The notes under the pieces: model-generated
What the model was told of the DNA's origin: nothing
Seen by the model: only the letters and a program-made list of their open reading frames with translations
Databases searched by the model: none
Part shown: positions 2,160-34,046 of the stretch, in pieces
Position numbering within the stretch: the first letter of the stretch is position 1
Layout: every line of letters starts with the position of its first letter
Translations under genes and position numbers: made by a program
Virus record (IMG/VR): IMGVR_UViG_3300022217_000232
Coordinates: 1-34,329 of that record
Source of the DNA: a virus
Taxonomy: Duplodnaviria; Caudoviricetes
DNA: 34,329 nucleotides
Reading direction: 5' to 3' (one strand)

Positions 2160-2405
2160 ATGAATAATTTAATTAAAAATATTTTTAATTTTATAAAACC
2201 ATTATTTTGTGATAATGGTGGAGGAATGTCTATCGGTAGACTAGGTTTATGGTTTACTATGGCACCTGCAATAGAAATATGGTATAGTGGTAATGATATT
2301 AAAGAAAATCATTTATATGTTTTAGTTATTTTTACCGTGTATAATATGTATAAAAAAATACCTCAATTTATTGATCTTATAAAAGCTTGGAAAGGTAATA
2401 ATTAA
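2160..2405 (+). CDS. Small membrane protein, holin-like
   Basis: 81 aa, D-x-G-G-x-S-x-G-R followed by two hydrophobic segments and basic C-terminus. Confidence 0.4.
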   Translation: MNNLIKNIFNFIKPLFCDNGGGMSIGRLGLWFTMAPAIEIWYSGNDIKENHLYVLVIFTVYNMYKKIPQFIDLIKAWKGNN

Positions 2406-2780: not shown

Positions 2781-3090
2781 TAAAACTATAGTAAGAATTA
2801 ATAAAGATCCTAGTATAAAATTAATAATTGATTTTACTTATTTAAAAGAAGAATCTACAAAATTAAAAGCTATAAATAATAATTTAGAAAATCAAAATAT
2901 TTCTTTATCAAATCAACTTAACAAATGGAAAGAAAATTATGATATTAAAAAATTGCAATCTATTGAATGGGAAAAAAGTTATAATGATTGTTCTAAAGAA
3001 ATAACGAAATTAAGTATTACCCCGATTTATAAGAAACCATATGTTTGGTTCATAATTGGTATATTATCAGGAGTTTATATAAATAAATAA
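2695..3090 (+). CDS. Signal peptide + coiled coil + C-terminal TM protein, spanin-like
   Basis: Hydrophobic leader ending VHA, coiled coil, C-terminal KKPYVWFIIGILSGVYINK; overlaps 2406..2780 by 86 nt. Confidence 0.35.
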   Translation: MLILQKIFAINFLVLVIIFVISYPVHANDKTIVRINKDPSIKLIIDFTYLKEESTKLKAINNNLENQNISLSNQLNKWKENYDIKKLQSIEWEKSYNDCSKEITKLSITPIYKKPYVWFIIGILSGVYINK

Positions 3091-3111
3091 TTTAATTGGA
3101 GGATCGATAAA

Positions 3112-3965
3112 ATGGATAAAGTAACTATAATTGCAGATATCGGAATTAATCATTGTGGAGATATAAAAATTGTTAAAAAATTAATAAAAATTGCTAAAGA
3201 TGCTGGAGTTGATATTGTTAAATTTCAAAAAAGAACTATTGAAGAAGTATATAGTCCTGAAGAATTAGATATTCCTAGAGAAAGTCCTTTCGGTAAAACA
3301 AATAGAGAACAAAAAATAGGTTTAGAATTACATCAAAATGATTATAATGAAATTAATTCATTTTGTAATTATTTAGGTATAGACTGGACAGCTTCTTCCT
3401 GGGATATTAAATCTCAAAAATTTCTACGACAATATAATTTAAAATATAATAAAGTAGCTTCTGCTATGTTAACTTGTTTACCTCTATTAGAAGAAATAGC
3501 CAAAGAAGGTAAATATACTTTTATTTCTACAGGTATGAGCACATATGATGAAATAAATATAGCTATTGATATTTTTAAAAATATGATTGCCCCTATGAAT
3601 TAATGCATTGTGTATCTACTTATCCTATGAAAGACGAAGATGCTAATTTATGTATGATTAATATATTAAATAATAAATATTGTTGCAATGTTGGATATAG
3701 TGGGCATGAAGTAGGACTTCAAATAACATTAGCTGCCGTTGCTATGGGAGCAACTTCAATTGAACGACACATAACATTAGATAGAACAATGTATGGTTCG
3801 GACCAGGCAGCATCTTTAGAACCTAATGGATTACGACAATTAGTTAGAGATATTAGAATAATTGAGAATGCTATAGGAGATGGTATTAAAATTATTTTAG
3901 ACAAAGAACAAGAATGTAAAAATAAATTAGCTAATCCATATTGGATAAAAAAGGGAAGGAAATAA
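3112..3965 (+). pseudogene. neuB: N-acetylneuraminate/nonulosonate synthase split by a -1 frameshift at A5 3577-3581
   Basis: IIADIGINHCGD, VKFQKR, KVAS, ISTGMS in ORF1; HCVSTYP, GYSGHE, IERHITLDRTMYGSDQAASLEP in ORF2; adding one A gives IFKKYDCPYELMHCVSTYP. Confidence 0.9.
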
Positions 3966-3967
3966 AA

Positions 3968-4312
3968 ATGGAAATAGGAAAAACATTAGACAATTATATA
4001 AAAATAATGGTTAAAAATATTTTAGATGAAAATAAATTTCCAGATTATGACGATATTCACACCGATACATTAGCCGAATTAATTGATAAATTAATAATTG
4101 TGCATATTAGATATTGGTATTTAGAAGATGCTATGTCTGAAGCTAAAACTGATGAAGAATTAGCTCATTTAAGACGTAAATCAGAATGTCTATTTAAAGA
4201 AAAAAGACCTATGTTAATTGAAGGGTTTGATAAATTAATATTTAAAATATTAGAAGGAAAGGAAGTTTATACTCCTTCTAATACTAAACAATATAAAGGA
4301 TGGAAAAATTAA
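3968..4312 (+). CDS. DUF4254-like helical protein
   Basis: DTLAELIDKLIIVHIRYWYLED motif; start reassigned to ATG 3968 after AAGGA. Confidence 0.5.
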   Translation: MEIGKTLDNYIKIMVKNILDENKFPDYDDIHTDTLAELIDKLIIVHIRYWYLEDAMSEAKTDEELAHLRRKSECLFKEKRPMLIEGFDKLIFKILEGKEVYTPSNTKQYKGWKN

Positions 4313-4313
4313 T

Positions 4314-5210
4314 ATGAAATATGGAATATGGAGACATGAAAATGCTTTAGGTAATTCGGCTGAGCATACAATAGCATTAGCTAAACATATAGAAAGAATT
4401 CAAGATGAAGATCCTATTATTTATGTAGAAAAAGATTTTCAAAAATATATGGCTATGTGTATACCTAAAATTACAGAAGATAGGATTAAATTTTTTGATC
4501 CCCATATAATAAAAGAATTTGATAGATATGGTCCTGGAAAATTAGGTGAATGGGTTAATACTCACTTAGCTACAAATGAGGAATATAAAGATGTACATTT
4601 ACCATATGTATATGCTTATAAACTACCTGCTTATAATGGGATGTGGGAAGATTTACCAGCCGATCCAGATATTACATTGAAATTTCCATACGAAACATAT
4701 AATAATAAATTTAATATTCCTTCAAAAGCTATTATCATTCAAGTTAGAGAACAAGGAACATATTGGAAAAGAATTGATGGTGCTAATTGTGAACCTGATC
4801 GATTTGTAAATCCAACTACTTTTAAAAATATAGCTTTATATTATGCAGATAGAGATTATAAGATGATTAGAATTGGTGATCCTAATCAAACTCCATTTCC
4901 ATCACATGAAAATATTATAGATTTAGCTATGAATTCAGAATCGACAGTATTAGACGATTTATATGCTATATCTGAATCTTCAATATTTTTATCATGTGAT
5001 AGTTCAATTTGGCCTATGGCAGGTGGCATGAAGAAAAATTTAATACTCAGTAATGTTACTAGTGCCTTAAACAAAAAATGTATTGTAGATTGGTTACCCA
5101 AAGAAACTTCTATTGTTCATTTTAAAGAATTAGTAAATGGTAGAAGAATGGATAATGATATAAATCTTTTAATTAATTCTATTGAAACTTTATTAAATAG
5201 GTCAGAGTAG
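4314..5210 (+). CDS. Putative glycosyltransferase (TIGR04372/GT-B-like)
   Basis: IIIQVRE..., MIRIGDP...P...IIDLA...DDLYAIS..SIFLSCDSS pattern; within sugar cluster. Confidence 0.55.
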   Translation: MKYGIWRHENALGNSAEHTIALAKHIERIQDEDPIIYVEKDFQKYMAMCIPKITEDRIKFFDPHIIKEFDRYGPGKLGEWVNTHLATNEEYKDVHLPYVYAYKLPAYNGMWEDLPADPDITLKFPYETYNNKFNIPSKAIIIQVREQGTYWKRIDGANCEPDRFVNPTTFKNIALYYADRDYKMIRIGDPNQTPFPSHENIIDLAMNSESTVLDDLYAISESSIFLSCDSSIWPMAGGMKKNLILSNVTSALNKKCIVDWLPKETSIVHFKELVNGRRMDNDINLLINSIETLLNRSE

Positions 5211-5212
5211 AT

Positions 5213-5902
5213 ATGAAAATAGGAGCATTTATTTTAGCTAGAGGTGGATCTAAAGGTATTCCAGGAAAAAATATTATTAATTTTATAGATAAACCCTTAA
5301 TAGCCCATACTATTGATCATGCTAAAAATTCAAAATTTATTAAAAACAACATATATGTATCGTCTGATGATGATATGATATTAGAAATATCAAAAAGATA
5401 TGGAGCTAGCACTATAAAAAGACCTGATGATTTATCTACTGATGAATCGGATTCAGAGTTAGCATTAAAACATGCTATTAAATCATCTGAAATTGATTGG
5501 GATATTATAGTATTTCTACAACCTACTTCACCAATTAGAAAAATCGACGATATAGATAAAGCAATCGAGCAATTTTTAGAAGATGAAGAGAACGATTCTT
5601 TATTTTCAGCATCTCCTTTAAATGATGATAGTTGCTTATGGTTGAATCATTCAACTTCTGTTGGAGATACCTTAATACCTACTTATGATATTGATGATAG
5701 AAAAAGAAGACAGGAATCAAAGGATAATTATTATATAGAAAATGGTTCAATTTACATTTTTAAACCTAATATATTATTTGAAAAAAATAATAGACTAGGT
5801 AGAGATATAGACATGTATATAATGGAAAAATGGCAACAATATGAAATAGATGAATGGGATGATTTAGGAGTATGTGAATTTATGATACGAAGATATTTAT
5901 AA
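5213..5902 (+). CDS. neuA: Acylneuraminate cytidylyltransferase (CMP-nonulosonate synthetase)
   Basis: ARGGSKGIPGKN, VSSDD, KRPDDLSTD, LQPTSPIR, ENGSIYIF, EIDEWDD. Confidence 0.92.
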   Translation: MKIGAFILARGGSKGIPGKNIINFIDKPLIAHTIDHAKNSKFIKNNIYVSSDDDMILEISKRYGASTIKRPDDLSTDESDSELALKHAIKSSEIDWDIIVFLQPTSPIRKIDDIDKAIEQFLEDEENDSLFSASPLNDDSCLWLNHSTSVGDTLIPTYDIDDRKRRQESKDNYYIENGSIYIFKPNILFEKNNRLGRDIDMYIMEKWQQYEIDEWDDLGVCEFMIRRYL

Positions 5903-15533: not shown

Positions 15534-15752
15534 TTACAATTTTTTCTGTACTAACTTTAATAATGCTTTACCATCTATTCTAGCTAATTTAGCATAATCT
15601 CTTACTATATCTTCTAATTTAATATTAACATCTTTCTTTTTAACATGTTTATATATTTCTATTACAAATTCCGACATATCTTCTAATGAAGATTTCACTT
15701 CCTCAATTACCTTCTTATTCAATTTCTTATTAATTTTATCTAATATATTCAT
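15534..15752 (-). CDS. Small head-module protein with shared N-terminal signal (MNILDKINKKLNKKVIEE)
   Basis: Start reassigned to second Met by similarity to four paralogous N-termini. Confidence 0.65.
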   Translation of the reverse strand: MNILDKINKKLNKKVIEEVKSSLEDMSEFVIEIYKHVKKKDVNIKLEDIVRDYAKLARIDGKALLKLVQKKL

Positions 15753-15765
15753 ATTAAAATCCATC

Positions 15766-16679: not shown

Positions 16680-16997
16680 TTATAATTCCTTATCAATTTT
16701 TTGTATATAAAATTTTGTAATTTCTAAAATATCATCACTCATGTCATTTATTAATTTATTTATTTTTTTATTATCGATAATATTTAATAATGTTTTCGTA
16801 TTCATTTCCAAACCATTAATATTACCTATTAAAGAATTTTCAAATTTCTCCAAAAGTCTAGATATTTTATTTATTACTGCTAATTTTTTTGTGTTTTCGT
16901 TTAATATTATATTTATTTTTTCAGATATATTCTTTATTCCAACTCTACCTATTTTTGCTTCATTTAGCTTCTTATCTATCTTTTCTAGTATATCCAT
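16680..16997 (-). CDS. Small head-module protein with shared N-terminal signal (MDILEKIDKKLNE)
   Basis: AAGGAG RBS; internal second copy ISEKINIILNE. Confidence 0.7.
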   Translation of the reverse strand: MDILEKIDKKLNEAKIGRVGIKNISEKINIILNENTKKLAVINKISRLLEKFENSLIGNINGLEMNTKTLLNIIDNKKINKLINDMSDDILEITKFYIQKIDKEL

Positions 16998-17085
16998 TCT
17001 AATTTATTCTCCTTTCAACTCATTTAAGAAATTATTAATAGCTTTAGCCATTTCTTCTTTAAATGTGATATAATTTATTTTTAAT

Positions 17086-17093
17086 TATTTATA
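17086..17093 (-). promoter_or_regulatory. T4-type late promoter
   Basis: TATAAATAATTAAAAA upstream of 17051/16997. Confidence 0.7.
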
Positions 17094-17204
17094 TTTAAAA
17101 AAATTTACTTTTTAATCTTCTAATACAATTGTTTCAACTCATTCAATTTATCTATTCTTGACATATTAACTTTTGGTCTATTTTTTGATTTATTAAATTT
17201 ACTA

Positions 17205-17228
17205 AACAATTTAACAATTTAACAATTT
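17205..17228. repeat. 8-bp tandem repeat x3 (AACAATTT)
   Basis: 17205-17212, 17213-17220, 17221-17228. Confidence 0.9.
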
Positions 17229-18230
17229 AATTCTTCTATTACGAATTTTTAAAGTAATACTTATTTTATTTCGACTTTCTTGAGATATTTCATGCCCCAT
17301 TAACGCTTTACTTATATTCTTACATGTGTTCTGTGATCTTTTTATTCCTGTAAGTGAATTTCTTCTTTTATCTCTTGTTTCTTGAGATTGAGGAGGTCTG
17401 TTTTTAGCTGACTCTCTTTATTTAGCTTTTGTTTCATCTGATACAAATTTACCTTTTTGGCTTTCACTTATATTTTTACATTGCTCTTCAGTTCTTTTTT
17501 GCCCTCTATTTTTTTCAGAAATCTCCCTATAAAATTCTTTCCCCTCTTCTGTTTTAGCAAATTCTTTTTGTCTTTCACTCTGTTCTTTTCTTTGTTTATC
17601 TGTTCTGTTTAAACCAGTAATGGCTTTTATCATATTCAATTTATGTTCTTTTGAAAGAGGGTTTCCTGTTTTAGCAATACTAATTTTTTCTTTATGTTCA
17701 TCTGAGCACTTTGTATTTTTTAATGGATGAGGACCTAATCTTGTTTCATTTCTTAGTATTAAAGATTTACTAATTTTTTCTTTAGTTTTTTCTGAGCGTT
17801 TTTTACCTTTCCTGGCGTTGCTCATTTTTTCTCTTGTTTCTTTTGAAAATAATTGGCCTTGATTCCCTTCACCTCCATTTGTCATATTCAATAATGTGCC
17901 TCTTTTTAAATCTCTCCTACCAATTATTCTAATTAATTTTATTTCTTCCGCAAACGCTTCTATCTTTGTTACATTATGTAAAATTTTAAATCTTATAGGT
18001 TCAATATTTTTATTATACAAACTTTTCAATTTAGAATAAAAAGGTGTTATTTTTTCTAATACTTTACCTTCTATTATACATTTCCAATGTTCTTCTTTTC
18101 TACCCCTACAACCTTTTCCTATATAAATCGGCTCATAACAAAAGTTATATATTTCTAATCCTTCTTTGTAAATAAAATCTCCAGGTTTCCTTGGATCTAA
18201 ATAAACATAAGTATAAAATATATTTTTCAT
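17211..18230 (-). pseudogene. GIY-YIG homing endonuclease with NUMOD3-like repeats (Seg-like), in-frame TAA at 17418-17420
   Basis: FYTYVYLDPRKPG...YIGKG...R, EIKLIRIIGR...NMTNGGEG, SKETREKMS repeats; repeats continue past the TAA (KAK*RESAKNRPPQSQETRDK...) to 17211; true start 18230. Confidence 0.85.
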
Positions 18231-18254
18231 CCTTCTAACTCCTTTATAAATATT

Positions 18255-18322
18255 TTTGAGAGACAACAGTGATCTAACTTCCATTGCTGGTTTGATGGTG
18301 GAACATCAAACCTAACCTCAAA
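18255..18322. ncRNA. Conserved three-way-junction structure, copy A, upstream of endonuclease 1
   Basis: Gene-sense: P1 TTTGAG/CTCAAA, P2 GTTTGATG/CATCAAAC, P3 CAGCAATGG/TCACTGTTG; covaries with copy B; transcribed strand unresolved. Confidence 0.7.
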
Positions 18323-18324
18323 TC

Positions 18325-18999
18325 TTACTTTAAAGATTTTAAAAATTTTAAAATAGCTTTTTGCATATGATGCTCTAAAAATACACTTTTTTTAGGTAAA
18401 TTAGATAAATCTTCCTCTAATTCATCGTATACATTTTCTATTACTTCTTTTATTCCTCCTGTACTTTCATCGACAACAAATCTACGAGATTCAACAACGC
18501 TATCCATATAACACCCAGGTCCAGATGGATCAGAAACAGCATCAATTGTAACCAACTTATAGTTGCTACCAACTATGCCTTTTTCATTAACACTACCTAA
18601 TCCTCTAGTTGACATTCCAATTTTATATTCATCATCAATTAGGTTCTTTATTAATGAACCTAGTGGAGTAGATGCAACTTTAGCTTTACCTATCCATATA
18701 TTACCTTGTCTATTTAATTCTGTAATATAATGGGATATTCTTTCAGGATTAATTTCAGGAGTTTGAGGATGATTTAATTCACCACCTAACCTACCTCTTT
18801 CATTAATCTTTTTTAGAATATTATTAACTTCTCTTTCTATAACTGAAGCTTCATATATTCTACCATTTTTATTTTTTGTTTCTGAAACAATCATAGGACC
18901 TTTAATATAATAATCTTTCTTACCAGTTGTAGCTTCTTCTATAATTGATTCAAAATTTTGACAATCAATATCTTCACGTAAAAGTTTTAAATAATTCAT
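18325..18999 (-). CDS. gp21: Prohead protease (T4 gp21-like)
   Basis: NKNGRIY, GELNHP, ISHYI, TPLG, GMSTRGLGS, DAVSDPS. Confidence 0.95.
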   Translation of the reverse strand: MNYLKLLREDIDCQNFESIIEEATTGKKDYYIKGPMIVSETKNKNGRIYEASVIEREVNNILKKINERGRLGGELNHPQTPEINPERISHYITELNRQGNIWIGKAKVASTPLGSLIKNLIDDEYKIGMSTRGLGSVNEKGIVGSNYKLVTIDAVSDPSGPGCYMDSVVESRRFVVDESTGGIKEVIENVYDELEEDLSNLPKKSVFLEHHMQKAILKFLKSLK

Positions 19000-19002
19000 A
19001 TA

Positions 19003-19341
19003 TTATTTTACCTTAACCGATTTTTCTAATTTCTTAAGAATTTTTATAGCCTCTTCTTCAGTTTTAATTTTAGATTGATGAAATACTATTGCTCCTGTAG
19101 TATTCCCGCCTTTTATTTCTGAAGTGCTTGAAGTAATACTTACTTGAAATGGTCCAGAAAGTATACCTTCTCCCCAATTTGTATAAGCTCCTAATATGAT
19201 AATTTCGCCTTTACCTACTGATATTGTTTTTCTCCAAACTTCAGTATTTCTAACTTCACCAACATCATTAGGATATACTGATTCTTCAATGACTTCTTTT
19301 TTTATATTTAACTGTTTATTGATTTTGTCTAATATATCCAT
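19003..19341 (-). CDS. Small head-module protein with shared N-terminal signal (MDILDKINKQLNIKKEVIEE)
   Basis: ORF track; paralogous N-terminus, unrelated C-terminus. Confidence 0.7.
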   Translation of the reverse strand: MDILDKINKQLNIKKEVIEESVYPNDVGEVRNTEVWRKTISVGKGEIIILGAYTNWGEGILSGPFQVSITSSTSEIKGGNTTGAIVFHQSKIKTEEEAIKILKKLEKSVKVK

Positions 19342-19346
19342 ATTAA

Positions 19347-19622
19347 TTATTCTTCGTCCTTACCGTCGTCAGAATTCTTGTCTTTCTTATCATCTTTATC
19401 ATTAGAATCTTTGTCATCCATATCGTCATCTTCTTCTTTCAATGCCTTCTTTTTAGAATTGCTAGATTTATAATCTTTAGTTTCAGAAACAAATCCTAAT
19501 TCTTCAGATTTATTAGCAACTTTATCAATAATTTTTTCTTTAACAATATCTCTCAGTGCACTTTTTGCCTCTGCAAATTTACCATCATTTATGAAATCTA
19601 CTACTTCTTTAGTTGTACTCAT
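19347..19622 (-). CDS. Prohead core protein (T4 gp67-like)
   Basis: Short helical N-terminus, very acidic tail, positioned between gp20 and gp21. Confidence 0.55.
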   Translation of the reverse strand: MSTTKEVVDFINDGKFAEAKSALRDIVKEKIIDKVANKSEELGFVSETKDYKSSNSKKKALKEEDDDMDDKDSNDKDDKKDKNSDDGKDEE

Positions 19623-19638
19623 TTATATAGTTCTCCTT

Positions 19639-19939
19639 TTAATTTTTATTTAAATCTACACTTTTAACTTTTTTAGGTCCTAATCCCAATTCAAATAATA
19701 CTTTATCAAATATTAATGATCCACCTTTAACCCATTCATTATATTTATCATAAACTTTAGAACCTAACCATTTTTTAATTTCTTTTGCTACTTTCTTTTC
19801 ACCTGGATCTTCTCCATTTTCCCACTCAATCCATTCTTTTTTTGTAACATTTACTCCTTTATCTTTTAGAGCTGGTAAAACTTTATCATAATCTGTTTTA
19901 GCTTCATTTAATATTTTGTCTATTTTTTATAATATCCAT
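19639..19939 (-). pseudogene. Small head-module protein with shared N-terminal signal (MDII.KIDKILNEAK...), frameshifted at A6 (plus-strand T 19923-19928)
   Basis: Missed by ORF track; AAGGA RBS + ATG 19939; downstream frame open for ~93 codons (DKILNEAKTDYDKVLPALKDKG...DLNKN*). Confidence 0.7.
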
Positions 19940-19953
19940 TCTATATTATCCTT

Positions 19954-20184
19954 TTAATATGTTATATTACTTCCCGTAAATCCTTGAGAAGTTTTATGAT
20001 AATGACCCATTTGCTCTTCTGAAAATTGCTCAATCCCAGTCTCTTCTAAGTTAACTAATCTATGAAAATGACTACCTTCTTTAGTAACAATAGGAGGACC
20101 AGTTAATTGACCATTTCCATATTTATGAATATGACCATCTCCATATTCGTTTAATATATTATCTATCTTTTCTAATATGTCCAT
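19954..20184 (-). CDS. Small head-module protein with shared N-terminal signal (MDILEKIDNILNE) and three HxH repeats
   Basis: GHIH, SHFH, GHYH. Confidence 0.7.
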   Translation of the reverse strand: MDILEKIDNILNEYGDGHIHKYGNGQLTGPPIVTKEGSHFHRLVNLEETGIEQFSEEQMGHYHKTSQGFTGSNITY

Positions 20185-20216
20185 ATTTATTAAAAAAATC
20201 CTTTATCTATTTTAAT

Positions 20217-20224
20217 TATTTATA
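20217..20224 (-). promoter_or_regulatory. T4-type late promoter
   Basis: TATAAATAATTAAAA upstream of 20184. Confidence 0.7.
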
Positions 20225-20251
20225 TAATTTATTTTTTACTTTTAGTCATTC

Positions 20252-21892
20252 TTACTTACTATGTCCAAAACTATATGAACTTTGGAGAATTTCATTTTCT
20301 TCCTCAGGTTCTTTTTCTTTTTCAGGAGGAGCTTTCTCACCATCACCAGTTTCTCCTCCATCTTCTGGTTCTTCAATTGGCTCTAATTCTTTGGTTTCTT
20401 TTTCCATTTGTTTTTTCATTTCTTGTATTTCATCATCCGACATTCTTAAAATAGTCTTTTGTAGATACTCCAGTGAATATACTTTCTTTTGCTCTTCTTC
20501 ACCAGGAGTATATTGTAAAGCTTCAGCAAATAATTCTAATCTTTCTCTAAAGTTAGCTAACTTTTTAGATTCTCTCCATTCATTTTCAACATTAAATTGT
20601 ATAACTATTTGATCTTTAGTTAATTTATATTGTTTCCATAAACCTATTAATTCTAAATGTTTAACAAAAACCTGATATACAAAATCAGAAAATCTAACTC
20701 TTACTCGTTGCACATATTTAGAAAATTCAATTTCTTCTCTATTTACAGTACCTTCAGCACCTCTAGGATAATATTCATTACCACTATCTTCATCTAATCT
20801 TTTTGTAGGTACCTTTAGAGCTTTATATAATTTTTTAACAAATAACATTATATCATCTATAGAATCAGCAAAATTTGAAGTTCCACCTATAGTATCTACA
20901 GTAGTACCTGAACCATCTGCTCTCTTCGGAAAATAGAAATTTTCAATCATACTTATAACATTTCGTCCAACATCGACCTCACCTGTGCTTGGGTTATAAA
21001 CTTTTTTCTGTTTGTATTTTTGTATAATTTCATTTAAAAATACTTCAGCTTTATTTTTAGGTAGATTACCAACATCAATATTGAAAGCTAATTTTTCAGG
21101 AGCTCTAACTAATCTATGTACGATTAATGCATCTTCTAACCATTTTAATTGTCTATATGCTATTTTAGCTCTTTCTAAGTATGACAAATATACATTTCTT
21201 TCTGAACAAAATAATCCAGAATTAACATATGCTATCTGCTCAGAACTAAATTCAATTTCCTCTTCTTGAGAAGAATTTCTTATAACACTTAAATAATTTT
21301 GATGAGTACTTGAATCTGGTATAATTTTTTGAACAAATTTAGTATTTTCACCAAATTTATCTTGCTCAGTTATCATAGTTTCTGGTGGTAATACATTTAT
21401 CTTTTTAATACCATCTTTAGGTTTTTTAGGATTAATAACCATCTCTGCAAATAATTCAGCTTCAATATAAAATTTTCTAAAATAAGTAAATCCATTTGTA
21501 TTAAAATCTAAAACTTTATCTATTATATATTCAAATTCTTTTTGTAAATTTTTAATTACATTTTGATTTTTAGATAATTTTTCATCATTTATTTGCAGAG
21601 ATAAAACTTCATTATTATCATCTACTACAATAGCTTCATCACATATCTTATCTAAAGCATCTGCTACTTCAGGAAACATAGCCATAGCTCTATAATCATT
21701 AATTAATTTTCTTTTATCAGCAGCAATTTGATATATGGATGTATAATATGAATTTATAGAAAAAGTTTCAAAATTAGAAAATCCAACTGATTCTATTTCT
21801 TCTTCTTTTTCCGCTGTTTTATCAAAAGTTTTCTTTAAACTTTCAGGACTTTCTCCTAATAAGTAATATCCTATTTTTTCTCTAAAATTCAT
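20252..21892 (-). CDS. gp20: Portal protein (T4 gp20-like)
   Basis: YRAMAMFPEV, LEDALIVHRLVRAPE, IDVGNLPKNKAE, LYKALKVP, REEIEFSKYVQR. Confidence 0.95.
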   Translation of the reverse strand: MNFREKIGYYLLGESPESLKKTFDKTAEKEEEIESVGFSNFETFSINSYYTSIYQIAADKRKLINDYRAMAMFPEVADALDKICDEAIVVDDNNEVLSLQINDEKLSKNQNVIKNLQKEFEYIIDKVLDFNTNGFTYFRKFYIEAELFAEMVINPKKPKDGIKKINVLPPETMITEQDKFGENTKFVQKIIPDSSTHQNYLSVIRNSSQEEEIEFSSEQIAYVNSGLFCSERNVYLSYLERAKIAYRQLKWLEDALIVHRLVRAPEKLAFNIDVGNLPKNKAEVFLNEIIQKYKQKKVYNPSTGEVDVGRNVISMIENFYFPKRADGSGTTVDTIGGTSNFADSIDDIMLFVKKLYKALKVPTKRLDEDSGNEYYPRGAEGTVNREEIEFSKYVQRVRVRFSDFVYQVFVKHLELIGLWKQYKLTKDQIVIQFNVENEWRESKKLANFRERLELFAEALQYTPGEEEQKKVYSLEYLQKTILRMSDDEIQEMKKQMEKETKELEPIEEPEDGGETGDGEKAPPEKEKEPEEENEILQSSYSFGHSK

Positions 21893-21914
21893 TTAATACC
21901 TTATACTTTTTAAT

Positions 21915-21922
21915 TATTTATA
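21915..21922 (-). promoter_or_regulatory. T4-type late promoter
   Basis: TATAAATAATTAAAAA upstream of portal. Confidence 0.75.
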
Positions 21923-21931
21923 TATTTTTAT

Positions 21932-22474
21932 TTATCGTCTAACTCTTCTTTTACGACTTTTTGCCTTAGCTCTAGATTTTTTTACTTTAGTTTTTGCTCT
22001 TGCTTTCATAGCTCTAATAGCTAATTTTTGAATTTGCTCAGGAGATACCCCAATAATTCTTTGAGTATCAGATTTTATAATTTCTTTATTTACTGCTACG
22101 GGATCCCATTGCCATGCATCAGTAAATGAAACATTTCTAATTCTATTAGTAAAATATCTCCTATATGCGATCAAAGCTTGAGGATACGTTCTCTTAATCC
22201 ATTCGTATGTAAACCCCTTAATTGGCTCTCCAAATTCATGAAAATCACCAATATTGAAAACTTTTTTCATAATAGAGATAAGTTTACGTCTTTGTGATAC
22301 GGTCATCCAGTGGATGTTCAGGGCACTAATATATTTTTTTTCAGTATCATAGTTGATAAAAATAATTAATGGGCGTCTGTCAAATTCCGTCAATTTATCT
22401 AAGTGCTTTGGAGAATAACTGAATGTTGCAAAACCACCAGCTGCAAATTTTTTATAAGTCTGTCTAAAAGCCAT
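21932..22474 (-). CDS. gp2: DNA end protector (T4 gp2-like)
   Basis: FSYSPKH...FDRRPLI...LNIHW...YRRY pattern, basic tail; near gp4. Confidence 0.65.
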   Translation of the reverse strand: MAFRQTYKKFAAGGFATFSYSPKHLDKLTEFDRRPLIIFINYDTEKKYISALNIHWMTVSQRRKLISIMKKVFNIGDFHEFGEPIKGFTYEWIKRTYPQALIAYRRYFTNRIRNVSFTDAWQWDPVAVNKEIIKSDTQRIIGVSPEQIQKLAIRAMKARAKTKVKKSRAKAKSRKRRVRR

Positions 22475-22496
22475 TCATATCCTTAATATTTTTAAT

Positions 22497-22530
22497 TATT
22501 TATAAAAGTTGAAATTAGTTTATATAAATA
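22497..22530. promoter_or_regulatory. Divergent pair of T4-type late promoters
   Basis: Minus TATAAATA 22504-22497 (gp2) and plus TATAAATA 22523-22530 (endonuclease 2/gp4). Confidence 0.75.
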
Positions 22531-22537
22531 ATTAAAA

Positions 22538-22607
22538 ATAGAGATAAGGTTGGATGATGATGCATCCAACCAACAGTGGGGAAATTAATTCACTGCTGTC
22601 TCTCTAT
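22538..22607. ncRNA. Conserved three-way-junction structure, copy B, upstream of endonuclease 2
   Basis: P1 ATAGAG/CTCTAT, P2 GTTGGATG/CATCCAAC, P3 CAACAGTGG/TCACTGCTG; begins 8 nt after a late promoter. Confidence 0.7.
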
Positions 22608-22636
22608 CCACAATTATTTATAAAGGGAAATAAGTC

Positions 22637-23799
22637 ATGACAGATATCAATAATGAAATTCTATTAATTGAAGATAAACGATTCTATACATATATTTATC
22701 TAGATTCTAGAAAGCCAGGAAAATATTCATATAATGGAGGTAAAGATTGTTTTGATTATGAGCCATTTTATGTCGGTAAGGGTAAAGGAGATAGATATTA
22801 TGATCATGTAGAGGAAGCTATTAAAAGTAATAAAAATAATTATAAATTGAATAAAATTAAAAAATATTTAAAACTAATCTTGAACCAATAATTATTAAAA
22901 GTGAAGAAAATCTAAATGAACAAGAAGCGTTTGATGAAGAAATAAGATTAATTTGGGTAATTGGTCGTCGAGATATGAATATGGGTCCATTAACTAATTT
23001 AACATGGGGAGGGGAAGGTGGAAGAGGTATAATTTTAACTGAAGACAAAAAAAGACAAATTTATCACGATAATAATAGAACTAAAAATATGAAAGAAAGC
23101 TTATTAAAATTTTATCAAACAGAAAGAGGTAAAAAAATAGCTAAAGAAATTGGCATATCAGGTGGGAAAACTAGAAAGGGTGTAAAACGTGGCCCATATG
23201 GTCCTAATAAAGCTAGAGGTCGAATATCACCACTTAAAGGTAAAAAGTATACTGAAGAAGAGAAAGATATATTATATGAATCTAGAAGAGGAATAATAAG
23301 AACAGATGAACAGCGAAATAATTATAGTGAAGCAACTAAGAAATATTTACAATCTGAAAAAGGTAAATTGGAATTTAAAGAGAGGAACAAAAAACAAAAA
23401 GAATCTTTATCTTTAACTAATAAAAAGAAATTAGCAGAAAAAGATAAAATAGATCCTTGGATAACATATACTTGCGAATTTAAAAATTGTAAAAATGAAA
23501 CTACAATGAGAACATCAAAATATAATAAACGATTAGAAAAATACAAAATCAATATATGTACATGTAGAAAATCTTATTGTGCTAACAATCAAATGAATAA
23601 ATTAAAAACTATAAAAAGATTAGAGTTAGAAAATAAAGAAAATCCATATATTATTCTTAAATGTGAATATAATAATTGTGGAAAAGAATTTAAAATAAGA
23701 GTAAAAGACTCAAAGAAAAGGTATGAAAAATATAATATGAATATTTGTGACTGTGCACGTAAATTGCCAAAACCTAGAAAGAATAAAAATGGCAAATAA
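22637..23799 (+). pseudogene. GIY-YIG homing endonuclease with duplicated Cys-rich C-terminal domain, split by -1 frameshift at A6 22859-22864
   Basis: FYTYIYLDSRKPG...YVGKG...R; adding one A gives KIKKIFKTNLEPIII...IGRRDMNMGPLTNLTWGGEG; CEFKNC...CTC and CEYNNC...CDC repeats. Confidence 0.85.
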
Positions 23800-24253
23800 A
23801 AATAAATTTCATCAAGGAGAATATACTCCTATTAATCCAGAAAAATATAAAGGGACATATCCGATATATTTTAGATCATCCTGGGAAAAAAAATTTTCGA
23901 AATGGGCAGATTTACATTCAAGTGTGATAAGTTGGGGTTCAGAAACTATTTTTATTCACTATTATCATCCTATAAAAAAAAGAATAGCTAGATACTTCCC
24001 CGATTATTATTTAATTATGAAAGATAAAGAAGGGATAATAACAAAATATATAGTTGAGGTGAAACCATGGAAAGAAACCATTCCTCCAGAACGGAAAAAA
24101 GGTAAGCGTAAAAAAACATTATTATATGAATCTGCTACTTGGATTGTAAATCAGGCTAAATGGGAATCAGCTAAAAAATGGTGTAAAAAGAAAGGATTGA
24201 TTTTTATAATAATTACGGAAAAACAATTATTTCCACATCGTTTTAAAAAATGA
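23789..24253 (+). CDS. gp4: Head completion nuclease (T4 gp4-like, TnsA-like fold)
   Basis: NPEKYKG, RSSWE, WGSE, RYFPD, VEVKP, NQAKW, ITEK; start reassigned to MANK 23789. Confidence 0.9.
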   Translation: MANKNKFHQGEYTPINPEKYKGTYPIYFRSSWEKKFSKWADLHSSVISWGSETIFIHYYHPIKKRIARYFPDYYLIMKDKEGIITKYIVEVKPWKETIPPERKKGKRKKTLLYESATWIVNQAKWESAKKWCKKKGLIFIIITEKQLFPHRFKK

Positions 24254-24286
24254 AAAGCCGACTATTTTTAGTCGGCTTTTTATTTT
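24253..24286. terminator. Bidirectional intrinsic terminator between convergent genes
   Basis: AAAAGCCGACTA-TTTT-TAGTCGGCTTTT with A/T runs on both sides. Confidence 0.85.
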
Positions 24287-24304
24287 ATATTAAAAGCTAT
24301 AATT

Positions 24305-24490
24305 TTATTTTCCTACATCAATCCAACCAGTTATCATACCAACAGGAGGTAAAATGCCGACAGTATGAATAATTTCAGCTTTATAAGGTTCTTTAAAGTC
24401 ACATTCTGTTAATTTAATAATATTTTTTACCCAACCAATACCAACAACCAATAATACAATTATTTGTATTATCAAAATATTTTTTACCAT
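24305..24490 (-). CDS. Small membrane protein (GWVKNIIKL..CDF..PYKAE family)
   Basis: Motif recurrent in phage small proteins; AAGGAG leader. Confidence 0.7.
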   Translation of the reverse strand: MVKNILIIQIIVLLVVGIGWVKNIIKLTECDFKEPYKAEIIHTVGILPPVGMITGWIDVGK

Positions 24491-24506
24491 TTTTAATCTC
24501 CTTTGT

Positions 24507-27696: not shown

Positions 27697-29415
27697 CTAT
27701 TTCATTTTTAAACTATATAAAGATTTATTTTTATAGAATTGTACTTCTAATCCTGAATTACATAAAATCATATCTTTAGAAATAGCAGGATCTTTTATTA
27801 ATTTTAGTTGACTATGGCCAATTTGATTTTTAAAAATTTCTATTTCACCATCATCTATAATATTAATAACAATATTATTTTTTAAAGTAATGAAATTTAC
27901 TCTAGTCGTAGAATCTACATCATCAATTCTACATGTATATTTATTGAAATCATTAGAATCAAATATCATGGTAAATCTTTCATATTTACCACCTTTATAT
28001 CCTATCATAATACAGACGTTTTTGTCAAATTTAGCATCAATAATTTTATATTTTTCTAATTCCTTAATATAAATTAATGTAAAAAATATTGAACCATTTG
28101 TTAATTTAGGAATCATTATATATGATTTGCCTAACAAATTACTATATAACATACCATTAAATATTTGAGTAGAATTTGTCATGGTATCATATATTTTACC
28201 AGGTGAAATTAAAATATTATTACCTATTTCAGTAAGTATAATTTCTATTAATTTTATCCCACTCCAAACAAATAATTTATTATCAACAACTATAAGTTTT
28301 TTAGCTTTAAATAATGAATTTAAATTTTTTCCATCTTTTACTTTTCTTAAAATTAAATTTTCATCACTGTCTATTGTAGCTACAATAGGGGTTAAATATT
28401 TTTCAGTAAATACTATTTCTATATTATTAGGATCATTAATTTTAAGATAATTTAACTTATCTAAAAAAATTTCACTACTAGTTAAAATTACTTTATTTAT
28501 TGATGCATAATCATATACTTTAACTATTGTATTCTTATATTCTTTAAGTAATTTTATTATAAAATTGTTAGTACTTTCAACTATTTCAGTAGTTATTTGA
28601 ATAGCTCCCATCATACCTGCTATAGTCGGAGGTGGAATTCTTCTACCCTTTTCGAAAAGTTCTGTAAACCATTCTCTATATTTTGTTGGTATATAAGCAA
28701 AATCTCTAGTAGATGCTGGTACACTAACTTCTTTATTGAAAATAGATATTCCTTTAGTCATCCTTTCAACTAAACTATTCTTTTTAAAATTAGGATGTTT
28801 TCCCTTAAATGGATGAATCCCAATAAATAATTGGCAGCAAATAATAGCAAATGAATACCAATCACTTCCTATAGTAAATTTATTAGAACTATAATCTCTA
28901 ATAGAAGGCATAATAGCAGTAGCTGGAAAGTTTTGAGTTTGATAAGAATTTACATCTATAAAATAAGGAGTAGTAAAATCTTTATCATTAACTAAGTAAT
29001 TCAATTCATTGCCATCAACAATTAATGCCTGTTTTTCATGAATGAATTGAATTGTTTCTTGCATATTTTCAATTAACTCTAATACAATTTCGGGAGTTAT
29101 ATTATTTCTATTTCTAAAATCATTAGTAAAAAGTTTACATAATGCTAAAGTATTCTTGATATGATCCATAGTAAATCCTATAGGTATCATATTTTTATTA
29201 AGAACTATATCAATAGGAGCTAAAATATTAGCCCTATTTAACTTCTGCAGCTCTTTAATCTTCTCAATAGGTATCATTTTATTAAGATCATCATAGATCT
29301 TATAAATCAATGATCCTTTACCATAAATTTTACCTTCACCACCTTCAGTAATATAATCTTGATCATATAGTTTTATTGGACCTTTACCTTGAATTATATA
29401 TTCTCTACTTGACAT
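27697..29415 (-). CDS. Ser/Thr protein kinase (TerY-P triad type) with C-terminal beta-rich domain
   Basis: GGEGKIY loop, YKIY Lys, VDGNELNYLV catalytic loop, FIDVNS, SDWYSFAI...GIHPFKG. Confidence 0.85.
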   Translation of the reverse strand: MSSREYIIQGKGPIKLYDQDYITEGGEGKIYGKGSLIYKIYDDLNKMIPIEKIKELQKLNRANILAPIDIVLNKNMIPIGFTMDHIKNTLALCKLFTNDFRNRNNITPEIVLELIENMQETIQFIHEKQALIVDGNELNYLVNDKDFTTPYFIDVNSYQTQNFPATAIMPSIRDYSSNKFTIGSDWYSFAIICCQLFIGIHPFKGKHPNFKKNSLVERMTKGISIFNKEVSVPASTRDFAYIPTKYREWFTELFEKGRRIPPPTIAGMMGAIQITTEIVESTNNFIIKLLKEYKNTIVKVYDYASINKVILTSSEIFLDKLNYLKINDPNNIEIVFTEKYLTPIVATIDSDENLILRKVKDGKNLNSLFKAKKLIVVDNKLFVWSGIKLIEIILTEIGNNILISPGKIYDTMTNSTQIFNGMLYSNLLGKSYIMIPKLTNGSIFFTLIYIKELEKYKIIDAKFDKNVCIMIGYKGGKYERFTMIFDSNDFNKYTCRIDDVDSTTRVNFITLKNNIVINIIDDGEIEIFKNQIGHSQLKLIKDPAISKDMILCNSGLEVQFYKNKSLYSLKMK

Positions 29416-30263
29416 CTTTTATCTTCTCCAATTACAAATGCACCAAATGAAATATCATCGTAATGTTTCCAACCATCTTTAATTTCACTCTTAATAGCTT
29501 TTTTACATCTCCGCTTTACAAATTCACCTTTAACATTTTTAAAAGCTACAAATTCTGTAAGGATACTATGTGCATTTTTTTTATCACCGTTCTTACAAAA
29601 AGATTCTACTCCATCTGAAGCAATTCCTATATATTCTATATCACTTTTTTCTATATTAATAATAAATGGCATTAAAGAATTATAATTTTCATAATAATTA
29701 TTTTCTATGAAATCATTTGAATTACAACCTTCTATTACTGTATGTGTAAAGGACTTATTGTATTCTTCAGACATTAATAATTGATAGTCAGTCATTCTTT
29801 TCAAATCTAAATTATAAGATAGATAATAAGGAGCATTATGTTTATATTGAAAAGCATGACTAGTAAAACTACCACCTTTATGTCTTAAAAATAAATGACC
29901 GTCACCATAAAAATAAGTATAAATATTACCTTTAAACTCAAACATAACAATTATAGTTGAATCTAAACTATTCAGATTTAAATCAAATTTATTTATAATA
30001 TCTCTAGCCAAATCTATAGCTTTATAGCCTAAATCCTCTTTACTAATTAATGAATCAAAGCTTAATGATGTTGTTAATATATTTTTAACACAATGAACTA
30101 ATATTCTAGATCCTACATCAGTATTTTTAGAAGAAGAGCACCCGTCGCCTAATATAATATAAGGCGACGGGTACATGCCAGATATGATATAATCCTCGCA
30201 AATATGATGGCTATCTCCGATGATTAAAAATGTATCTACATTTTCTATTTTACGAGAACTCAT
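29394..30263 (-). CDS. PP2C-family protein phosphatase
   Basis: GDSH..CEDY, GDGCSS, GDG, ASDG, HYDD. Confidence 0.85.
   Translation of the reverse strand: MSSRKIENVDTFLIIGDSHHICEDYIISGMYPSPYIILGDGCSSSKNTDVGSRILVHCVKNILTTSLSFDSLISKEDLGYKAIDLARDIINKFDLNLNSLDSTIIVMFEFKGNIYTYFYGDGHLFLRHKGGSFTSHAFQYKHNAPYYLSYNLDLKRMTDYQLLMSEEYNKSFTHTVIEGCNSNDFIENNYYENYNSLMPFIINIEKSDIEYIGIASDGVESFCKNGDKKNAHSILTEFVAFKNVKGEFVKRRCKKAIKSEIKDGWKHYDDISFGAFVIGEDKRCQVENI
30140..30172. repeat. Perfect 11-bp GC-rich inverted repeat inside the PP2C gene
   Basis: ACCCGTCGCCT-N11-AGGCGACGGGT. Confidence 0.85.
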
Positions 30264-30273
30264 ATCATATCTC

Positions 30274-30996
30274 CTAAAAAGTTAATTGTTGACTAGGACC
30301 ACCTGTTCCCAGGCTCTGACTTTGTGAATTAACGCTCTTGCTCACAAAAGCTGCTAATTTAGCAAGCTTTTGATCAGTAGCTTCTCCAACATCAACATAT
30401 TGTGTCAAATTACTTTCATTTTTAAATTTATTCAATTCACTACTGCAATTTGAAGCATTAATTCCGATTAAAACTGTAATCAAAGATTCAATCTCTTCTC
30501 CATTAATAGCTAATTCCATTAAGTCTTTGACTGCAGATGGAGTATAAGTAGAACTAACATCCATTCCATCTGTAATAATAAACACTATACCATTGACATC
30601 AAAATCTTGACTAATTAAATTTTTAGAATAACTAAGAGTTGCTCCAATAGATTCATAAGTAGCATCATATAGTGATGTTAAATTAAAACAATTTAGATCT
30701 TGATAATCATCAACATTAATATCATTTAATAAAATGAATCCATGTACTTCATAAATTTCCTTGTTGAATGTTACTAATCTAATAAGTAAATTTTCAGCCC
30801 TAGGACTTTTCTTACATGAATTAATAGCAGTTTTAACAGTTTCTAATAGTTCAGCTGAAAATATATGTACACTTCCACTAATATCTACAACTATAGTAAC
30901 TAGGGTATATTCAGTTGCGCACAATTCTTCAGGTCTTACTGCTGAAAAATTAAAACTTCCGCCAATTATAGGCAAATCATCCATCATTTTAGGCAT
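30274..30996 (-). CDS. von Willebrand factor A domain protein (TerY-like)
   Basis: DISGS MIDAS, TSLYDA, ITDG. Confidence 0.88.
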   Translation of the reverse strand: MPKMMDDLPIIGGSFNFSAVRPEELCATEYTLVTIVVDISGSVHIFSAELLETVKTAINSCKKSPRAENLLIRLVTFNKEIYEVHGFILLNDINVDDYQDLNCFNLTSLYDATYESIGATLSYSKNLISQDFDVNGIVFIITDGMDVSSTYTPSAVKDLMELAINGEEIESLITVLIGINASNCSSELNKFKNESNLTQYVDVGEATDQKLAKLAAFVSKSVNSQSQSLGTGGPSQQLTF

Positions 30997-31623: not shown

Positions 31624-32418
31624 CTATTTTAAAAATTCTATACTAGTAGAAACTTGCATTCCACGAGCACTCATATCTTTAACAAATGAGTCACCTAAAT
31701 TCTCGAATCCTGGAACATTAGAACAAGTATCTTTAAGTAATACAAATTTCTTAATGTTATCTTCGCCGAAATTATCTGCAATATCAGTTACAGTATTTGC
31801 AACACAATGTGACAATGCCTGTCCAGAAATAACAATAATATCAGCTTCTTCCAATGTTTGAATTAATGGAACATTCAAATGTGTGCTAGGATCTTCAGGA
31901 TCAGGAACATCAGATTTAACTGCACTATAATGTTCAGTTTTATAATTACTACCTTTAGTCACATAATCGATCATATTAAAATCATTTTCCCACTCAGTAA
32001 TTGCATTATAAACAGGATCGACTACATTGTTTCCCCAGCTTCCAATCAAACAATGAGGAGGCCAAATACACAATGGATATCTACCATTAGCTTCTAAAGA
32101 TTCAATATATGATTTTACATATTCTTTAAAAGCTGGATTAGTTGGACCCCAAGTACCATTTTGAATTTCTTTACTAGTAATAATTGTAAATGGATCTGGA
32201 TTTTTACCTTCAGAATTTTTCCAAAAAATTGGATGTGCAATATCTACTAAATGATGACTATCCAATGTAACATGAATATCATAAATTTTATCCTTCATTC
32301 TTCGAATAAAATTACTTAGCCTTTTTGCATCTTCATCTGCACCTGGAACGAATAAACTACCAGATGGATCACAAAAATCATTTTGTGGATCAATAATTAA
32401 CAACTCTATTTTTTTCAT
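31624..32418 (-). CDS. pncA: Nicotinamidase / cysteine hydrolase (isochorismatase family)
   Basis: IDPQNDFC, GSLFVPGA, DSH, WPPHC, K-G, GQALSHCV. Confidence 0.85.
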   Translation of the reverse strand: MKKIELLIIDPQNDFCDPSGSLFVPGADEDAKRLSNFIRRMKDKIYDIHVTLDSHHLVDIAHPIFWKNSEGKNPDPFTIITSKEIQNGTWGPTNPAFKEYVKSYIESLEANGRYPLCIWPPHCLIGSWGNNVVDPVYNAITEWENDFNMIDYVTKGSNYKTEHYSAVKSDVPDPEDPSTHLNVPLIQTLEEADIIVISGQALSHCVANTVTDIADNFGEDNIKKFVLLKDTCSNVPGFENLGDSFVKDMSARGMQVSTSIEFLK

Positions 32419-32442
32419 TCTATTTCCTCCATTTTAGGTTTA

Positions 32443-32470
32443 ATTATAATATGTTTATTTTAAAAGTCAA
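32443..32470 (-). promoter_or_regulatory. sigma70-type promoter (TTGACT-16-TATAAT) for pncA-vWA-PP2C-kinase run
   Basis: TTGACT 32470-32465, TATAAT 32448-32443. Confidence 0.65.
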
Positions 32471-32475
32471 GATTT

Positions 32476-32673
32476 TTATTCTTCCCTTCTTGTTATTGTA
32501 AATAAACATCTACAATTTTTACATTGACAATGTGCTGTGTATAATTTATTTTTTTTAGATATATTATATACTATATCACTAGAATTACATTCTGGGCAAT
32601 GTGGCATTGGGCTATATTTGTTATTCTTAATCCATCTTATTCCATGTGATTTAATTTTTATATTATACCTCAT
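32476..32673 (-). CDS. Zinc-ribbon protein (CPEC...CKNC)
   Basis: Start reassigned to ATG 32673 overlapping the pncB TGA. Confidence 0.6.
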   Translation of the reverse strand: MRYNIKIKSHGIRWIKNNKYSPMPHCPECNSSDIVYNISKKNKLYTAHCQCKNCRCLFTITRREE

Positions 32674-34046
32674 TTTATTTCCCACACTACATCTTTTATT
32701 TTTGAGTGAGCTGTTAATTGCCAATACCCAAAATAATTATTTTTATTAGTAATAAGTATTACTTCAGTATTTGGATTATAATTCATAAATTTAAGACCTG
32801 GTAGATTTCCCTTTCCACATGACGCCTTTTCAGGATATAATGTAATTCCATCTTCTTTTTCAATTTCAACTAGCTTATAAACAAATCCAGCATTAATTGT
32901 TTCTGAGCCAAATATATTAACATAAGCAGTACCGGCCATACACATATCAAATGGAATATTCCTTTCTTCAAAATCTTTTAACCTTTCTGGTGTAAGATCT
33001 CCACTAATAAATATTTTAACATCTTGCCAACCTACTTTATTTAATTGTTTTCTTACTGCTATAGCATATTCATCCAATGGTTCACTATCAATTCTAATAA
33101 CAGTTGGTTTAATATTATTTAATATTAACATATTAATAGCTGCTTTAACATTATAAGTGTCTACAAGAAATGTACTATTAGGCCAAATATCATTCCATAA
33201 TTTATAAGCTTCTATTTCTGACTCTTGTCCCATTACAAAACTATGAGCCATAGTCCCACCTAAAATATCTAATCCTAATACTGTATCAAAAGCAGTAGAA
33301 GTATTACTAGTCCCATTCCATCCTTCATTAATAGCTACTGTTGATGCCATTAGAGCTGCTTCATATCCTGCGGCTCTTCTAAATCCTGCTTCAAAAAGAA
33401 TTTTACTAGTAGAATTTCTATACTCTTTAGCTCTTTCTACTAGATGATCTCTATATGTAGGAAGTAAATCAGAAACACTAGATGAAAAACTTTTACCATC
33501 AACTAAACTTTGTAAATTCGTGAGTTTTTTATTATAGGGTTCAAGATAAAATTTAGTAGCTAATCCAGTAGAACCATTAATGGCATTAAGAATTGGAGTT
33601 TCTAGTAATTGGCCTATCCATTTAGGACCTCTATATTGAAAAGCTGGAACAAATGGTCTTAACATAGCTCCTAAAGGATAATAAATTACTTCGAAATCTT
33701 TATTAAGATAATTCCATTTTTCTCTAATCCTTCTTTCATACTCAGCTACTCTATTTTTAGGGAATTTAGGTTTTACTAAATCTAAAAATATTTCCAATAA
33801 ATTAGGATTTTCAAGCTCTTTTCTAACATCTTTAATTAAAGTTTTTACTTTATAATTCCCACCAAAAATATAAAAATCATCATTGGGATTTATTTTTGGA
33901 TTTACTTTTCTATAGAAAGCTTCAAACCCAGCAATTTCATCAGCTTGATCTAAAAGAATATAAGCCACTACCATAGAAAGTTGATAAAAGTCAGTTTTTA
34001 ATAATTGAAAATGATTTTCTTTTAATAATAATGATTTATTATCCAT
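32670..34046 (-). CDS. pncB: Nicotinate phosphoribosyltransferase
   Basis: TDFYQLSM, LLET, GFRRA, GTSN, GTMAHS, LVDTY, IRIDS, ISGDL, VYKLVE. Confidence 0.85.
   Translation of the reverse strand: MDNKSLLLKENHFQLLKTDFYQLSMVVAYILLDQADEIAGFEAFYRKVNPKINPNDDFYIFGGNYKVKTLIKDVRKELENPNLLEIFLDLVKPKFPKNRVAEYERRIREKWNYLNKDFEVIYYPLGAMLRPFVPAFQYRGPKWIGQLLETPILNAINGSTGLATKFYLEPYNKKLTNLQSLVDGKSFSSSVSDLLPTYRDHLVERAKEYRNSTSKILFEAGFRRAAGYEAALMASTVAINEGWNGTSNTSTAFDTVLGLDILGGTMAHSFVMGQESEIEAYKLWNDIWPNSTFLVDTYNVKAAINMLILNNIKPTVIRIDSEPLDEYAIAVRKQLNKVGWQDVKIFISGDLTPERLKDFEERNIPFDMCMAGTAYVNIFGSETINAGFVYKLVEIEKEDGITLYPEKASCGKGNLPGLKFMNYNPNTEVILITNKNNYFGYWQLTAHSKIKDVVWEIK

Follow-up and report, generated by a model that had tools for sequence, protein, structure and literature searches.

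A candidate antisense RNA family beside selfish nuclease genes of uncultured T4-like phages

The window analyzed here is the whole 34,329-nucleotide (nt) stretch of IMG/VR virus record IMGVR_UViG_3300022217_000232, and it harbors two copies, A and B, of an element of about 70 nt, each placed just upstream of an endonuclease gene. Comparison across related viral sequences reveals a covarying three-way-junction fold with a G·U bias toward the strand opposite the nuclease gene, a late-promoter motif directed into the fold on that strand, a loop (L2) that matches the start region of its own gene, and partner nucleases that are unrelated to each other. As judged from sequence, the element is most likely an antisense RNA with a regulatory role and not a guide or a ribozyme. 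Specifically, we propose that it is probably the gene for a ~70-nt antisense RNA that would repress nuclease translation through pairing of L2 with the ribosome-binding site (RBS) in trans. The original prediction, made from the letters of the window, had posited a conserved structured RNA associated with endonuclease genes, and this much is borne out. The features on which the argument turns are the following.

18255..18322, plus strand: copy A of the three-way-junction RNA (P1 18255-18261/18316-18322; GAC 18262-18264; P2 18265-18271/18282-18288; L2 18272-18281; P3 18289-18297/18304-18312; TAA 18313-18315)
22538..22607, minus strand: copy B of the three-way-junction RNA (P1 22607-22601/22544-22538; GAC 22600-22598; P2 22597-22591/22578-22572; L2 22590-22579; P3 22571-22563/22556-22548; TTA 22547-22545)
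18273..18279, plus strand: anti-RBS 7-mer in loop L2 of copy A, identical to the 7-mer at 18234-18240
22579..22585, minus strand: anti-RBS 7-mer in loop L2 of copy B, identical to the 7-mer at 22625-22631
18231..18244, minus strand: RBS and spacer of endonuclease A, predicted target of L2
22623..22636, plus strand: RBS and spacer of endonuclease B, predicted target of L2
18245..18252, plus strand: putative T4-type late promoter TATAAATA, pointing into copy A, antisense to endonuclease A
22615..22622, minus strand: putative late promoter TATAAATA, pointing into copy B, antisense to endonuclease B
22523..22530, plus strand: putative late promoter TATAAATA, sense to endonuclease B and facing the antisense promoter across copy B

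A covarying fold in uncultured T4-like phages

The letters, coordinates and stems of both copies, the three compensatory changes between them and the 10-nt spacing from TATTTATAAAGG to the ATG in each were found to be as originally described. Both cores fold into the claimed three-way junction (z of -2.5 for A and -4.5 for B), and a structure descriptor returned two matches in the 34-kb window, namely A and B, against one in 223 kb of control loci from bacteria and archaea; these loci are the output of a too loose contig pattern, consist mostly of chance matches and were used as a control only. In a variant of copy B found on one low-depth contig (window 22490-22639), all three stems have changed in step on their two sides, although a single contig may contain errors. 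Further cassette variants appear on other contigs at the depth of the window, and the phage is therefore likely to have more copies outside the window.

Family members were collected from 232 loci of endonuclease relatives and from three pattern scans of viral contigs, the third contributing the 122 matches listed of about 350. A Watson-Crick-only descriptor yielded 97 matches, of which 72 were kept for lying outside the bacterial control set, with the promoter motif on one side and an inter-hairpin gap of at most 2 nt; 58 of these 72 have an open reading frame (ORF) on the opposite strand. A 55-member set additionally required a downstream TATTTAT, with the window copies, L241, L242 and L301 admitted by name. 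The family is large in uncultured T4-like phages: a model built from 21 members, R1, produced 59 matches in 100 chosen sources, and a single weak match (E = 0.08) in five cultured phage genomes. An exact-core pattern derived from the two window copies hit no viral contigs, and blastn of two elements against cultured phages gave no match across the element. No empty sites were seen among the matches listed for four DNA sequencing runs, and none of the sequencing runs listed as containing the sequence was an RNA run.

On 56 distinct sequences, the covariation score of the fold is 0.691, compared with 0.179 for shuffled and at most 0.166 for slid alignments, and 20 of the 22 pairs change on both sides; the covariation figure is not a probability, because the alignment was fitted to the model and the members are related. 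The family consensus runs through P1, GAC, a P2 opening with A-U and G·U, P3, UUA or UAA, and P1', and the GAC junction lies 25-52 nt (mostly 27-33) from the start codon. The complete 213-kb genome G003 carries 16 copies. Four members (L468:1193-1266, L484, L509 and L540) have no clear adjoining nuclease ORF and may be relics after gene loss; in L468, the leader is followed by tRNA-like sequence.

No Rfam family, ribozymes, C4 and int-alpA included, matched the element. Rfam 15 searched over window positions 17000-24500 at E ≤ 10 placed no family on A or B, searches of 12 loci at the gathering score and of 12 loci at E ≤ 1 returned no match on the element, and the matches that were listed fall elsewhere, on terminator-like sites, tRNAs and a group I intron. 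The int-alpA motif (RF02996), which resembles the element in size (71 positions), had no match to it at E ≤ 10 in any of five genomes or records that together hold 25 copies. The hammerhead ribozyme core consists of CUGANGA plus GAAA, and it is absent from all 55 members on either strand. The small size of the element, its conserved junction bases and its position at the boundary with host genes would suit a self-cleaving or processing RNA or the structured end of a mobile unit, both raised in the original prediction. Yet neither idea predicts a loop matched to the RBS and, together with the absence of Rfam ribozyme matches and of the hammerhead core, this leaves both highly improbable.

The loop match and the working strand

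Loops of the two copies had been considered unrelated in the original prediction. Each L2, in fact, repeats a 7-mer of the RBS region of its own gene, and the relationship extends across the family. In the 58 members with an opposite-strand ORF, the longest Watson-Crick match between L2 and its own start region averages 7.19, against 4.12 when pairs are permuted (0 of 10,000 permutations), whereas the same comparison for loop L3 is null (n = 58). The match persists among 27 members that share GGAG (7.22 versus 4.84 permuted), in 37 non-redundant members (7.62 versus 4.17) and among the 16 copies of G003 (7.69 versus 5.32; 0 of 100,000), where the own gene is strictly the best L2 target for six copies and best or tied for 12. 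For reference, 4.4% of random window pairs reach a 7-nt match by chance. Matches span positions -14 to -4 approximately, centered on -9 and -8, and in L293, which has no Shine-Dalgarno (SD) sequence, the match is shifted onto the start codon. The L2 of copy A is predicted to form a duplex of -11.0 kcal/mol with its own start region and of -7.8 kcal/mol with that of B, and the L2 of copy B one of -11.6 kcal/mol with its own and of -4.4 kcal/mol with that of A. As expected of an antisense repressor, the loop is complementary to the RBS region of its target and covaries with it. Five further pairings of the loops were null, covering the kissing of the two loops inside the RNA and the match of L2 or L3 to either the start of the coding region or the DNA downstream; both mirror-strand loops were likewise null against their own start region or RBS.

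The original prediction had set RBS control aside because the RBS lies outside the stems. This is correct for the core, but in longer folds of the mRNA a predicted outer stem can reach the SD in A, and the evidence presented above points to RBS control after all, though in trans. A T4-type RBS-sequestering hairpin was also considered and rejected, since no conserved cis pairing between leader and RBS was found on the mRNA, the predicted outer stem in A covering the SD in part.

Several lines of evidence favor, as the source of the working molecule, the strand opposite to the mRNA, where the family-wide pairing is conserved, over the mRNA side as first claimed. Within the 55 members, G·U pairs outnumber A·C oppositions 28 to 9 on the promoter strand (P = 0.003; Watson-Crick-only descriptor, with pattern-fixed positions and the last P1 pair excluded), and the ratio is 22 to 6 in the 37 members less than 75% alike. 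The G·U of P2 is kept in 52 of 56 sequences, its G being fixed by the search pattern. The TATTTATA reported earlier is the reverse complement of TATAAATA, a late promoter element according to PMC2677866, and is directed into the element. TATAAATA also lies in sense orientation upstream of several late genes in the window; it is present in the leader regions too, but there the RBS-adjacent motif faces away from the nuclease gene. An ATAAATA just upstream and facing into the element occurs in 26 of 33 members obtained with a pattern that did not require it. The antisense strand thus combines a putative promoter with conserved structure, the arrangement expected of an antisense repressor. The corresponding count for a downstream TATTTAT (17 of 20) was discarded because the class is partly defined by TATTTAT. 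The sequence after P1 is U-rich (mean of 5.8 T in 10 positions), in part because it includes the opposing promoter motif.

Under the mechanism that we favor, the reverse late promoter beside the nuclease RBS would yield, late in infection, an RNA of about 70 nt that begins a few bases past the motif, the start spacing familiar from T4 late promoters, and ends in the U-rich stretch after P1. The three-way fold would display L2 for pairing with the nuclease RBS, and this pairing would keep ribosomes off and so lower nuclease translation. With the promoter motif ending immediately ahead of the SD, a plain antisense overlap would not extend as far as the RBS; the missing anti-RBS would be provided by the direct repeat carried in the loop, and this geometry gives the loop a reason to exist.

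A number of observations weigh against this interpretation. The mirror strand folds almost equally well (mean of -20.2 versus -21.1 kcal/mol), the promoter strand being lower in 34 of 55 members. At two positions, the G-C and G·U of the family are replaced in copy A by A·C, which corresponds to G·U on the mRNA strand; this copy may be either decaying or tolerant of such changes. A terminator scan for the 3' end came up empty at A and picked out P3 alone at B, and the antisense promoter of B could simply serve the downstream gp2-like gene. Mismatches inside the loop-RBS match favor G·U weakly (11 versus 4, P = 0.12, not significant), with 16 other mismatches, and five of 55 members match poorly, one of them having had a miscalled start codon.

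The near-equal folding of the mirror strand fits an alternative in which the mirror leader of the mRNA is the main target of the antisense RNA: the RNA loop would kiss the perfectly complementary loop of that leader, a full duplex would follow and the message would be cut or destabilized, with the RBS match acting as a second site or setting a threshold. A sense transcript from 22523 would indeed carry the full complement of the RNA. Mirror pairing, however, is automatic and needs no RBS match, yet the match is kept gene by gene, and the full duplex would end upstream of the SD; we regard this alternative as unlikely. Another possibility is that the mRNA leader is the working molecule, as first drawn, its loop mimicking the RBS as a decoy or standby site to capture 30S subunits or a repressor protein. 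The loop does repeat the RBS on the mRNA strand, and copy A pairs better on that strand at the two positions just mentioned. Against it stand the G·U bias and the conserved junction on the other strand, the extension of the loop match past the SD core and a sense-orientation class of leaders, presented below, in which the GAC core is on the mRNA and the loop is complementary, not identical, to the RBS. These considerations make a decoy leader quite unlikely.

Control might alternatively operate on DNA, through interference between facing late promoters and use of the repeat as a protein operator, akin to the autorepression of I-TevI through an operator described in PMC2988022. Facing late-promoter motifs do flank copy B and most of the 16 copies of G003. 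Such a scheme would leave the compensatory pairing of three stems and the G·U bias unexplained, and the repeat follows the RBS rather than the protein family, so that we deem it very unlikely.

Partner nucleases, sense-orientation leaders and genomic setting

The two genes downstream of copies A and B and the gene that borders copy A are the following.

17418..18230, minus strand: endonuclease A, 270 amino acids, free-standing and with an intact frame; LEM-3-like GIY-YIG (PF22945) and NUMOD3 (PF07460) domains by Pfam; phrog_314, homing endonuclease
22637..23799, plus strand: endonuclease B, LEM-3-like GIY-YIG, same domain as A; frameshift near 22850-22890
18325..18999, minus strand: gp21-like prohead protease, stop codon 2 nt from copy A

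By their sequence, A and B appear to be free-standing GIY-YIG homing endonucleases, with the catalytic domain and a modular DNA-binding tail, inserted between conserved phage genes. The frameshift of endonuclease B falls on an A-rich run; a possible source sequencing run has no indel there, and either decay or slippage may be responsible.

Elsewhere in the family, 38 of 51 scanned partner ORFs have a nuclease or homing-endonuclease match, some of them weak (Pfam, with PHROGs for most blanks), and the remaining 13, several of which are truncated, have no assignment. Partners comprise classic and SegE-like GIY-YIG, HNH and endonuclease-I-like proteins and one TnpB, and only three of the 51 are LEM-3-like GIY-YIG. 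The TnpB (L301:21-1282; Cas12f1-like TNB and OrfB_IS605 domains) is located in a viral contig with the same antisense cassette, its loop matched to the start region. Conversely, R1 matches lie just upstream of the gene in only seven of 178 loci of the window endonuclease family, with one further weak match elsewhere in L220; this search excluded L021-L074, which are 54 weak matches. The element is therefore associated with selfish nucleases generally and is optional for the window family, contrary to the original proposal that it is tied to this one endonuclease family.

The same figures bear on the suggestion that the endonuclease uses the RNA as a cofactor or guide scaffold. Linkage to nuclease genes is tight and includes a TnpB, and the conserved junction core is otherwise unexplained. 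Partners of unrelated folds and the scarcity of the element in the window family nonetheless speak against a family cofactor, and the RBS explains the variable loop, for which no alternative match was found; this is the least probable of the explanations considered. L3 had no match in nearby DNA. The obligate link to a single nuclease family that is expected of an OMEGA-like guide or cofactor RNA is absent.

In L085, L097, L195 and L209, which are matched by R1, and in other loci found by pattern, the same core lies instead on the mRNA strand, between a late promoter and the gene. In this sense-orientation class, it is the second hairpin that is complementary to the RBS. Among 29 unselected same-strand ORFs, the match is 4.31 versus 3.67 permuted (4 of 10,000), and in 17 members picked by eye, a procedure that biases the set, it is 7.24 versus 5.22, with a null result for the first hairpin; L106, L109 and L230 belong to this set without an R1 match. 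The class supports the GAC strand as the working RNA and pairing with the RBS as its job, and in it the core likely blocks the RBS in cis via the other loop.

More tentatively, the GAC / G·U / UWA junction might be a portable, re-targetable riboregulator scaffold, perhaps protein-bound. One of its loops would serve for action in cis and, when the scaffold is inverted between two late promoters, the other for action in trans. Genomes with multiple copies would then hold an addressed network, with one RNA per selfish nuclease that could also silence other nucleases with an identical RBS, among them those encoded by a competing phage in the same cell. We consider this extension doubtful.

Other structured leaders were observed before endonuclease genes. 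In L106:2912-3003, L109:2900-2994 and L230:460-554, a constant GGCCGGCCAGCC hairpin is accompanied by a second loop complementary to the RBS, the L109 leader lying just after a group I intron match. L192:173-335, L102:2212-2374 and L135:1600-1669, which have no R1 match, present two other shapes: an extended rod in which a late promoter is embedded, and a short hairpin interrupted by an internal loop.

The window itself is a fragment of a T4-like phage (CheckV completeness of 15%), and its portal protein shares at most ~35% identity with cultured phages among the 25 best matches listed. Endonucleases A and B sit among head genes encoding, by Pfam and PHROGs, the major capsid protein, scaffold, prohead protease, portal, DNA end protector and head closure proteins. 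As the stop codon of the gp21-like protease gene is 2 nt from copy A, endonuclease A is likely to be read through from the protease gene. After the head closure gene, a strong stem with A and T runs on its flanks (24250-24290), likely a two-way terminator, draws several weak Rfam matches. Small genes of the head cluster (15534-15764, 16680-16997, 19003-19341 and 19954-20184) start with a similar MDIL(E/D)KI and possibly encode head-targeted internal proteins; a PHROG scan of three of them gave no match. By eye from the translations, consecutive kinase-like, phosphatase-like and vWA-like ORFs occupy 27697-30996, a sugar-modification cluster 222-5902, and a nicotinamidase-like and NAPRT-like pair 31624-34046.

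Comparison with known regulatory systems

We found no description of the motif in the literature, in a survey that left most subscription journals uncovered and met some unreadable supplements. The supplement of PMC10690425 lists unnamed candidates upstream of GIY-YIG and HNH genes, with DNAVirus_8282, 8080, 1290 and 1557 as those to compare, and the motif may be catalogued there without a function, the alignments and diagrams of that source not being readable. The present analysis adds a link between the antisense and sense orientations of one core.

Known control of phage homing endonucleases consists of cis hairpins and operators. If the proposed mechanism is correct, it would add a new layer, a dedicated antisense RNA per nuclease with a loop retuned to each RBS across unrelated nuclease families, which could account for the tolerance of 16 such genes in one phage. 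The rule that links loop and RBS provides a directly testable prediction via loop swaps, and a 70-nt scaffold with a swappable anti-RBS loop, operating in cis or in trans, could serve as a compact riboregulator.

According to PMC2988022, the T4-type homing endonuclease genes I-TevI, I-TevII, I-TevIII, segB and Aeh1 mobE carry RBS-sequestering hairpins, with marine examples in PMC2677866. Those hairpins resemble the element in residing at free-standing nuclease genes, in the late promoter TATAAATA and in control aimed at the RBS; they differ in being cis mRNA hairpins relieved by a late start inside the stem, whereas the element is an opposite-strand three-way junction with an anti-RBS loop. 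The hairpin upstream of seg43(25) is reported in PMC2988022 as stable and as leaving the RBS uncovered.

Parallels in mode of action come from antisense RNAs. The c4 RNA of P1 and P7, as portrayed in PMC12197685, is likewise a small, structured RNA of phage origin that blocks translation by pairing its loops to sequence close to the target RBS, but its target is an antirepressor; the element would target a selfish nuclease, with one copy per target gene, and has no Rfam match on the tested copies. RNA II of the pAD1 par locus (PMC4147584) is similarly a convergent antisense RNA that reaches the ribosome-binding region via DNA direct repeats. In pAD1, RNA I and RNA II overlap at their 3' ends, two repeats are involved and a small membrane toxin is what they control, whereas the element overlaps the 5' leader and uses one loop repeat. 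A parallel in gene context is CfrI of cyanophage S-PM2, an antisense RNA of ~225 nt whose function is given as unknown in the passages available from PMC2984593 and PMC12197685. Like the element, CfrI belongs to a T4-like phage and overlaps a homing endonuclease gene, CfrI being confirmed experimentally and the element known from sequence; CfrI is longer and overlaps both psbA and the nuclease gene, and those descriptions of it mention neither a three-way junction nor an RBS-matched loop.

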